Source of the DNA: Escherichia coli O127:H6 str. E2348/69 | Lineage (GTDB): Bacteria; Pseudomonadota; Gammaproteobacteria; Enterobacterales; Enterobacteriaceae | Assembly (NCBI RefSeq): GCF_000026545.1 | Contig: NC_011601.1 | Length of the DNA stretch: 64,000 bases | Reading direction: 5' to 3' (one strand) | Shown here: positions 48,083 to 51,000 of the stretch, piece after piece | Layout: each line of letters begins with the position of its first letter | Position numbering within the stretch: position 1 is the first letter of the stretch | Made by a program: the position numbers

Positions 48083-51000
48083 AGAAGACCGTCGGTTTCC
48101 AGTGTAACCTGCTCCTGATTTGCTTTACGTAATGTGGATACAGTCCAGTCCTTGACCTCCAGAAATACCAGCCCGTTATCCGGGTCAATAATGACAAAAT
48201 CCGGATGTCGGTTTTTCCGTCCCACCGGGATATCGTACCAGACAAAGCAATCATCATTCAGAAAGCTCTCCAGTCGTGAAGCCACCCTCCTCTCCCCTGG
48301 CGTCATTCTCTCCTCAGTGGACGCTGATATATTTATCAGTTTCGCCATAACATACTCATGCTCCAGTAAAACCATAACCGTCGACATATTCCGTCTGAAG
48401 GGAATATGTCGAATACTTCATTAAAATACAAACATTTAGTAAACTTCACTACGCAAGTGCAATTATCCAGTCCCGTCTAATGATTAAAAACGATAACCAA
48501 CTCCAACAGTAAATCCATTGACCGAATGTTTTCCATATATATCTGCTTTAGTTCCCTCATACCCAACATTTACAGACATATTGCCCCACGGATTAATAAT
48601 AACACCAGCTGCATAAGCAAAATCAGTGGATTTTTTTGATACAGACTCACTTAAATATCCATCAGACTCATCAGCACCCACACTGTTTCTCCACTCATAA
48701 TCTCCCTTCGCTTTAGTATGAGATATCCCCACCAAACCATAAAAACTGATATAGTCATTCAGACGATAAGCTGGGCCTGCGAGAAATGAATAATATTTAA
48801 TATCAGCCTGATGTCTGTAAAAATCGTCAGCTTCATCGCGATGACTGTCCGCCCAATCACCTTTCATATACGAAAAACTCCCGACGACACTGACCGGAGA
48901 ATCCCACTCATATCGATATTGCAGATTCACTCCTTTAATATTCTTAAAGTCCTGTACCTTACTCTGAGCATAACCAGCCGATAGCGTATGATTATCAGCC
49001 AGTCTTGAACCACTCATAACAGATAATATCATTACTGAAATTATAACGAGTTTTTTTCATTTAACCCTCCTTCATTAATAAATGATTTCTGAAAATCAAA
49101 AAGGACCACACATCTCAAAAACATTATTTGAAATCATCATCAAAAAACTATAAATATATCACCTGACGATTTGAACACACTGACAAAAAACCAAGCATGG
49201 TAATAAACCGAACTCCCCACAAACTTCTGTTGCCTCAGATACTCCCCCCCCCTTTCCTCAGGCACAAATGTTGTTCCATAACGAACCAGCCCTGTTCCTT
49301 TAAACTCTGCATCAATGGCATAATGTATACTCACCAGACTGAGTTTGCTCCTGCATCATTATTTCGATACGTTAATGCATTGTTCATTGCATCCGGCATT
49401 CCCCATCGAATATTTACTTTGTTATATCAGGCAGCCCATAACCAGGTAAATTTTTAAGGCTTACTGACTGAATATTCAAAATGTGTTACATGTTATCAAA
49501 CCTTTAAAGAATAACCTGCTCTTCTTCATTGGCCGGATTTAGCTCAATCTTGTCAGCAAAACTAATATAAAGCCGTTCATAAAGAGAAGGATGTAGCTTC
49601 GTTATTTATCTTTTACATGTAACAGTGCCAGGGGATATTCCGCACATCTCTGTGGCTATCATCCCCACCACGTCTCCAGTGGCAGCACCTGCGGCACTGG
49701 CACGGGCGTTATTTCCCTGTACCACCGCCAGTGCAGCATTCACCACGGCATGGGCTGCCACATTTGCAGTCTTATTCACCACACCTGTAACCTGTCTCTT
49801 ATACACAAATCCCCACCCGGGGATTTGTGATGTCTGTCAGTCTGCTTTAGGGGGACTCTTTCCATCCGGTAGTTTCCTTCCTCCCCGGCAGCGATTTTTT
49901 GAACTTTTTCTTCACCCGTTGATCTTCTCTTATATTTCATTTTCTTCGGGTCTGTTATGGTACTTTCTGATTGTTATTCACTGGCTAACGAGCAGTCTGG
50001 ACATGCCCGTCTCGGTGATCCGCGTCGTACACGACGCCTTGTGTCACTGACCTCTTCTCTCGCTCAGCATGCAGGTCTTTCTATTGTGAAATCATCCCAC
50101 TTCACTGCTCAGGTTGAAGGTGCGTACCGCCTGATACGTAACCCGTCGGTGTCCCCGTAAGCCATTGCCGAAGCCGGATTTACTGCCACTGCAAGGGCAT
50201 GTGAGGCACATCCGCTGCTCCTCGCGCTGGAAGATACCACCACCATTAACTTCGGTCACAGTACGGCATTTGATGACCTGGGGAATACCACCACTAACCC
50301 GAAGACGCACGGGCTGCTGGCTCACTCTGTCCTGATGTACGCCCCCGACAGCGCCCTGCCAGTCGATCTTATCGAACAGCAGTGCTGGAGTCGTGCCACG
50401 GACACCTACGGTGTTAAGCACCAGCGAAAAGAACGTCCCTGTGAAGAAAAAGAAAGTTACCGCTGGCAGCAGGCTTCGGAGCGCATGGCCGAACGGCTGG
50501 GGGAGATACAGAAACAGGTAATCACTGTCTGTGACCGGGAAGCGGATATCTGGCATTACCTGCATTATAAAGTCAGCCGCGGGAAGCCACACGCTGAATG
50601 TGATGCAAAAAGGCGGGCGGGCAGCCCGCCAGGCCCGGATGCTCATCAGTTACAGCGAAGTCAGCATAAAAAATCCCGACAACAGCGGCCAGGCGCTCCC
50701 GCTCACGTATGTCTGTTGCCGGGAGCAGGCAGAGGACGGCGCCTGCTGGCATCTGCTGACGTCAGAAAAAGTGGCGAGTGCCGCCGATGCGCGACGTATC
50801 GTCAGCCATTACGAGCAACGCTGGCTGATAGAGGAATACCACAAAGCGTGGAAAAGTGGTGGTACATGTGTGGAATCGCTGCGAATGCAGACCCGGGATA
50901 ACCTTGAGCGCATGGTGGTTATCGCGGTGCGGGTGCTGGGCCTGCGGCAGGGAGGTATCAGTGAAGAAACACAAAATGACAGCTGTGAGAAAATACTGAC

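Follow-up and report, generated by a model that had tools for sequence, protein, structure and literature searches.

The pheV island of enteropathogenic Escherichia coli (EPEC) O127:H6 strain E2348/69 contains, at the edge of an insertion sequence (IS), a 66-codon open reading frame (ORF) that is very probably non-functional mosaic debris, made up of the end of the element ISEc13, an internal piece of cdiA and an out-of-frame piece of tssJ. We analyzed this ORF in a 64,000-nucleotide stretch of contig NC_011601.1, hereafter the window, where it occupies positions 49606 to 49806 of the minus strand, with a GTG start codon at 49806-49804 and a TAA stop codon at 49608-49606. The original prediction described a minus-strand ORF of 66 amino acids (aa) that starts inside an IS50-like terminal repeat and reads outward. 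The list of ORFs of the window, which gives the translation as MYKRQVTGVVNKTANVAAHAVVNAALAVVQGNNARASAAGAATGDVVGMIATEMCGISPGTVTCKR, and the repeat found at 49792-49810 confirmed this description.

A 66-codon ORF of three parts

Codons 1 to 5 (MYKRQ) belong to the ISEc13 end and lie within its 19-bp terminal repeat, codons 6 to 56 are a piece of cdiA, and codons 57 to 66 with the stop codon come from the tail of tssJ. The GTG is the complement of 49804-49806, and the frame points outward from the IS end into the flanking DNA. That the IS terminus had fortuitously supplied the start codon was thus a sound proposal, as the GTG is contained in the 19-bp end of ISEc13. The peptide had also been called Gly/Ala-rich; both residues are indeed abundant, and Ala/Val/Gly-rich is the more exact description (Ala 21%, Val 17%, Gly 11%). 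Because the six frames of the window hold 199 ORFs of at least 66 aa, the length of this one is unremarkable by itself. A chance ORF was considered and ruled out by homology to CdiA. Pfam and NCBIfam scans of the 66-aa ORF gave no match, and a tblastn search of plasmids found nothing, with the low-complexity filter as the probable cause.

The central part is an internal segment of cdiA

A homology search with the ORF translation for its parent gene returned CdiA, which bears out the proposal that the ORF is the remnant of a larger gene. The ORF shares 79% aa identity over 56 residues with the 3′ end of CdiA in the related locus L005, and 74% identity with residues 1616-1650 of the CdiA encoded on a metagenomic contig (L003). 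Residues 35-94 of one of its relatives (P0011) align with 1591-1650 of the neighboring CdiA at 95% identity. At the DNA level, identity to cdiA is 79% for L003 (49762-49640), 89% for L005 (49792-49640) and 92% for E. coli M6, and the matching stretch in complete genomes is annotated as "hemagglutinin repeat-containing protein" or "VENN motif pre-toxin domain-containing protein." Homology to both the CdiA protein and cdiA DNA therefore identifies codons 6 to 56 (49640-49791, minus strand) as an internal cdiA piece that lies just upstream of the region equivalent to PT-VENN, the pre-toxin domain.

These 51 codons correspond to residues ~1600-1650 of a 1974-aa CdiA. Homology stops 3 residues short of PT-VENN, as placed by Pfam, and ~325 residues before the C-terminus; across the break, the CdiA of L005 reads ...VTGEVNKAANVAAHAVVNAALAVAQGNNALAGAAGAATGEVVGMIATQMYG|KPVSELSETEKQ...TTVENN. 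The ORF is thus not the C-terminal remnant that had been predicted, as its CdiA residues are internal and its last 10 codons and stop derive from tssJ. Neither a PT-VENN domain nor a VENN motif was found in the ORF by Pfam, and it has no two-partner secretion (TPS) domain or hemagglutinin repeats, with 51 CdiA codons remaining and the ISEc13 end upstream. No toxin domain and no cdiI follow the fragment, where the tssJ tail and a tssE pseudogene are found instead. The 64-kb window contains no cdiB or cdiA; cdiB is present in related loci that lack the IS (IS-free loci).

The downstream junction joins cdiA to the end of tssJ

In the alignments, resemblance of the ORF to cdiA ends after ...EMCG. 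A sensitive DNA search with 49100-49640 aligned this region to intact type VI secretion system (T6SS) clusters at ~67% identity, beginning at window position ~49633-49636 and running over tssJ and tssE. Alignment with the tssJ-tssE region of STEC409 showed that the last ~35 nt of tssJ remain at 49602-49639 on the minus strand. The tssJ frame of the window reads SLALLHVKDK* (stop 49604-49602), compared with TLTLLPVKDK* in the TssJ of STEC409. The 66-codon ORF reads the same tail one base off, as ISPGTVTCKR*, with TAA as its stop. A shift in GC content marks the junction, from 58.6% in the cdiA piece to 38.6% in the adjacent tssE remnant.

The tssE pseudogene, which encoded a gp25-like T6SS baseplate protein, lies at 49140-49599 on the minus strand and has ~67% DNA identity to intact E. 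coli tssE. Its ATG has become AAG, several stops interrupt the frame, which is also shifted once, and 45 bp of the intact gene are missing; no intact TssE ORF remains, and the NCBI Prokaryotic Genome Annotation Pipeline (PGAP) also labels it a pseudogene ("GPW/gp25 family"). Pfam gave no match on the stop-masked translation, and identity was settled by DNA comparison with intact tssJ-tssE. Together the decayed tssE and the tssJ tail (49140-49639, minus strand) sit between the cdiA scrap and a pagC-like gene. The OI-122/IE6 island therefore holds the remains of a T6SS cluster. In E. coli M6 and STEC409, more pieces of such a cluster follow (a 306-nt hypothetical gene, an ImpA/TssA pseudogene, VasL and an AAA protein).

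The upstream junction is the end of a degenerate ISEc13

The IS boundary was placed at 49792, because many other E. coli genomes align to the search query only from its position 153 (window position 49792) onward. From 49792 on, the window matches exactly the left end of an intact element that is annotated as "IS4-like element ISEc13 family transposase." The window copy (49792-51237, plus strand) aligns in two blocks to the annotated intact ISEc13, from 49792 to 50587 at 97% identity and from 50574 to 51240 at 95%, with ~78 bp missing between them. This copy of an IS4-family, IS50-group element is dead: it has an internal deletion, frameshifts and a stop, and its transposase is frameshifted. 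Its left terminal inverted repeat, 19 bp at 49792-49810, is CTGTCTCTTATACACAAAT and matches the IS50 outside end (CTGACTCTTATACACAAGT) at 17 of 19 positions. The right end is CTGTCTCTTGATCAGATCT (the reverse complement of 51219-51237), identical to the IS50 inside end; a search with the left-end pattern, allowing up to 3 mismatches, did not find it, as the two ends share their first 9 bases only. Pfam identified Tnp_DNA_bind (E 1.7e-15) and DDE_Tnp_1 (E 7e-5) in the transposase pieces. The element thus combines 19-bp terminal repeats of the outside/inside-end type with a Tn5-like transposase, as do members of the IS50 group.

The reference ISEc13 copy is 1550 bp long and flanked by a 9-bp target duplication, ATCTGCAGC. 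No 9-bp target-site duplication is present at the window copy, where the left (ACCTGTAAC) and right (GTCAAAGAT) flanks differ; the present configuration is therefore not the outcome of a simple insertion. It implies that an IS-associated deletion, or recombination between IS copies, took away the upstream part of the cdiA fragment and whatever lay beyond it.

Two further ORFs cross or abut the IS boundary, and both look spurious: one of 141 aa (49625-50050, plus strand), antisense to the Ala-rich cdiA piece, and one of 54 aa (49776-49940, minus strand) in the left end of ISEc13. In some strains small indels fuse the 54-aa ORF to the cdiA scrap (relatives P0019 and P0021). The curated Sakai annotation independently marks two "ISEc13 ... 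partial" repeat regions here, and the interval from ISEc13 to the pagC-like gene carries no annotated gene. The papers that a literature search found for OI-122, pagC and ISEc13 dealt with virulence typing only, and ISEc13 is not mentioned in them.

The cdiA-tssJ fusion is probably older than the ISEc13 event

All protein relatives of the ORF are short ORFs of 44 to 104 aa from E. coli, Shigella and Salmonella, with differing N-termini and starts, and several are frameshifted. Every one of them, including those in IS-free loci, ends in the same ...MCGISPGTVTCKR* cdiA-tssJ junction. As this junction is common to all IS-free relatives, the fusion is older than the ISEc13 event. In the IS-free loci the fragment is isolated and 70 to 230 codons long. 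The prediction of a gene disrupted by IS insertion thus fails, both on these already isolated fragments and on the missing target-site duplication. As judged from these loci, what the ISEc13 event met was already an orphan fragment without VENN and without a toxin. Homology between the window and the IS-free loci ends exactly at 49792 on one side and at 47552 on the other, and none of the DNA that precedes the fragment in the IS-free loci recurs elsewhere in the window. The exact ISEc13-cdiA junction occurs in 414 of 5426 complete E. coli genomes, and the fragment block in 503.

Several related loci retain the surroundings of the fragment. On the metagenomic contig L003, cdiB (POTRA/ShlB), the 1974-aa CdiA (Fil_haemagg_2, PT-VENN) and a 78-aa membrane protein, likely CdiI, are followed by a 104-aa relative of the ORF, then by an Ail/Lom gene and an intact NERD/UvrD helicase gene. 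Loci L004 to L007 have small immunity-like ORFs upstream of the fragment and the Ail/Lom-helicase pair downstream. Very hydrophobic ORFs of 78 to 90 aa stand after the CdiA toxin tips and before the orphan fragment (L003, 7660-7896; L005, 1250-1507 and 5201-5473); they look like membrane-type CdiI immunity proteins, and in IS-free loci one such CdiI-like ORF survives, orphaned, immediately before the fragment.

In E. coli M6, cdiB, a lysine acyltransferase gene (cdiC-type), cdiA in pieces, a DUF596 gene and a 660-bp pseudogene precede the tssE pseudogene, which is followed by Ail/Lom, the helicase gene, a hypothetical gene and an ImpA (TssA) pseudogene. PGAP describes the 660-bp pseudogene as "VENN motif pre-toxin domain-containing protein," "missing N-terminus and C-terminus." Translated, it gives ~230 CdiA-homologous codons in a single open frame that ends ...GMIATEMCEISPGTVTCKR*, with the same ...EMCEISPGTVTCKR* junction. 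A "toxin-activating lysine-acyltransferase" lies between cdiB and cdiA both in M6 (L013, 7746-19995) and in strain 2014C-3097 (L010, 7352-18153), as in loci of cdiC type, and cdiA itself is split into pieces in both strains.

Coding status and alternative readings

We infer that the 66-codon ORF is not a gene and is not expressed. A consensus scan of the minus strand found no promoter-like site upstream of the start codon, and any outward transcript would contain an 11-bp perfect hairpin (CACAAAUCCCC-GGGU-GGGGAUUUGUG) whose 3′ arm ends in the GTG. In the DNA this is an 11-bp perfect inverted repeat, CACAAATCCCC ACCC GGGGATTTGTG, at 49803-49829, inside the left end of ISEc13 and overlapping the terminal repeat. 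It could act, for example, as a barrier to read-through. ORF calls vary by pipeline, from 66 aa through 57 aa to none.

Some observations weigh against an inert mosaic. The promoter scan was a crude consensus match. PGAP calls a 57-aa coding sequence in the same frame (49606-49779; hypothetical protein WP_001453071.1), one gene caller gives the 66-aa form (P0001, 69 member sequences), and a peptide of 57 to 66 aa may be translated. The pN/pS ratio between alleles of the fragment is 0.43 and thus below 1, from a sample that is too small (7 nonsynonymous and 6 synonymous differences). The lineage substitution counts are likewise too low to interpret, and both they and the ratio are confounded, as "fragment-specific" residues (ARASAAG; …VVQGNNARASAAG…) also occur in the cdiA of M6. 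Longer relatives match Pfam DUF637 only below threshold (E 0.007-0.013), and we do not rely on these matches. It is barely credible that outward transcription from the ISEc13 end leads to a small Ala/Val/Gly-rich peptide, translated from the whole chimera or from the 57-aa version, and that attaching-and-effacing E. coli has kept this peptide for a membrane or regulatory role in OI-122/IE6.

The same PGAP call and pN/pS ratio, and the near-constancy of the block (at least 99% identity) in ~414 complete E. coli genomes, speak for an independent conserved small protein of ~57 to 104 aa, such as an Ala/Gly-zipper membrane peptide, that resembles CdiA by chance. We consider such a protein highly improbable. 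The near-identity reflects an island that has spread recently rather than selection; the ORF calls range from 44 to 104 aa with varying starts, several alleles are frameshifted or truncated, and the M6 allele has ~230 in-frame CdiA codons upstream. Moreover, the C-terminus is the out-of-frame tail of another gene, no family model matches, the curated Sakai annotation leaves the ORF out, a hairpin buries the start codon, and the consensus scan gave no promoter-like site. A second alternative sees in the ORF the C-terminal part of a gene that only the IS insertion broke, and draws on the frame being open across the IS boundary and on homology to IS-free loci stopping exactly at the IS end. These two observations do indicate that the IS event removed upstream coding-like sequence. 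This alternative is nonetheless very unlikely: the IS-free loci hold a fragment of 70 to 230 codons with no conserved start, TPS domain, VENN motif or toxin and with the same cdiA-tssJ junction, the homologous CdiA runs ~325 residues past the break, the last 10 codons are out-of-frame tssJ, and there is no target-site duplication.

The fragment might also still serve as an orphan cdiA module, with which a resident cdiA could recombine to swap toxin tips. Orphan cdiA fragments keep pre-VENN homology, for which a role in recombination has been proposed (PMC3150448), and the fragment has 79 to 92% DNA identity to cdiA genes. Against this, only 152 bp of homology are left, VENN, toxin domain and downstream cdiI are replaced by the tssJ tail and the tssE pseudogene, and the 64-kb window has neither cdiB nor cdiA, so that such a use is hardly conceivable.

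Genomic context of the ORF

The locus is the pheV island IE6 (OI-122/SpLE3 type) of EPEC E2348/69, beside tRNA-Phe, and its sequence agrees with the chromosome of that strain at 100% identity. The gene order is integrase, ISEc8/IS66 remnants, NERD-domain pseudogene, Ail/Lom (PagC-like) gene, tssE pseudogene, 57-aa hypothetical gene, IS4-family transposase pseudogene, second transposase pseudogene, espL2, nleB, nleE and efa1/lifA. O157:H7 Sakai carries the same block, there as part of the "phage-like element SpLE3." In every related locus, the gene for the Ail/Lom (PagC-like) outer membrane protein (48484-49032, minus strand) keeps its synteny with the fragment. On its other side the conserved block ends at 47552, where the NERD/UvrD helicase gene is cut short by an IS66-family element; this helicase-type gene (47431-48387, minus strand) is intact in related loci, where it encodes 581 to 604 aa. 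On the other side of ISEc13, a frameshifted transposase pseudogene with an integrase-type C-terminus (51460-52029, plus strand) overlaps the start of espL2 at 52020. As it runs into the start of the effector gene, the DNA just upstream of espL2 is IS derived.

Proposed history of the locus

We propose that an ancestral island carried a cdiB-(cdiC)-cdiA-cdiI locus beside a T6SS cluster (tssF-tssG-tssJ-tssE...). An old illegitimate deletion would have removed VENN, the toxin domain and whatever immunity gene was present, and so fused a cdiA copy, broken just before PT-VENN at codon ~1650, to what is left of tssJ, its last ~35 nt. This would have left an orphan cdiA fragment without translation signals. 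Later, in the OI-122/IE6 lineage, a rearrangement associated with ISEc13 may have cut the fragment upstream of codon ~1600, so that the left end of ISEc13 came to abut it. The IS end happens to provide the first five codons, with a GTG in frame, and the tssJ tail, read out of frame, adds ten codons and the TAA, which completes the 66-codon ORF.

The scrap and its neighbors can serve as a historical marker. They suggest that the pagC-side module of OI-122/IE6/SpLE3 came from an island in which a cdi locus had become joined to a T6SS cluster in decay, an arrangement that E. coli M6 still shows, and that ISEc13 and IS66 rearrangements later trimmed the module. In practical terms, WP_001453071.1, which hundreds of enterohemorrhagic E. 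coli (EHEC) and EPEC genomes list as a "hypothetical protein," is the scrap of a pseudogene, and its annotation should say so.

Comparison with known systems

The feature is ordinary and of an already known kind. Orphan cdiA-CT fragments located downstream of cdiBAI generally lack translation initiation signals and keep a variable stretch of cdiA from upstream of VENN; IS elements sometimes interrupt them, and in some species they are without both VENN and cdiI (Poole et al. 2011, PLoS Genet, PMC3150448). Like them, the window fragment lacks translation initiation signals, keeps pre-VENN cdiA sequence and is disrupted by an IS, and its relatives lie downstream of cdiB-cdiA-cdiI. Unlike a complete orphan cdiA-CT/cdiI module, it has no VENN, no CT toxin and no cognate cdiI, it is detached from any cdiBA in the window, and its 3′ end is fused to the tail of a T6SS gene. 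By its sequence, it fits the minority, degenerate class of orphan cdiA fragments that lack VENN and cdiI.

Its identity of 79% in protein and up to 92% in DNA links it to the CdiA/filamentous-hemagglutinin-type two-partner-secretion exoproteins (Fil_haemagg_2, PT-VENN), whereas ~51 of roughly 2000 to 2300 codons are left and none of the defining domains. The adjacent element resembles ISEc13 of the IS50/Tn5 group in its IS50-outside-end-like left end, its transposase domains and its 95 to 97% identity, and differs from the reference copy in being dead and without the 9-bp target duplication. Finally, as in other hybrid ORFs at IS junctions, an outward frame takes its start and initial codons from the IS end; unlike in those, the scan found no outward promoter here, and the start codon lies in a stable hairpin.

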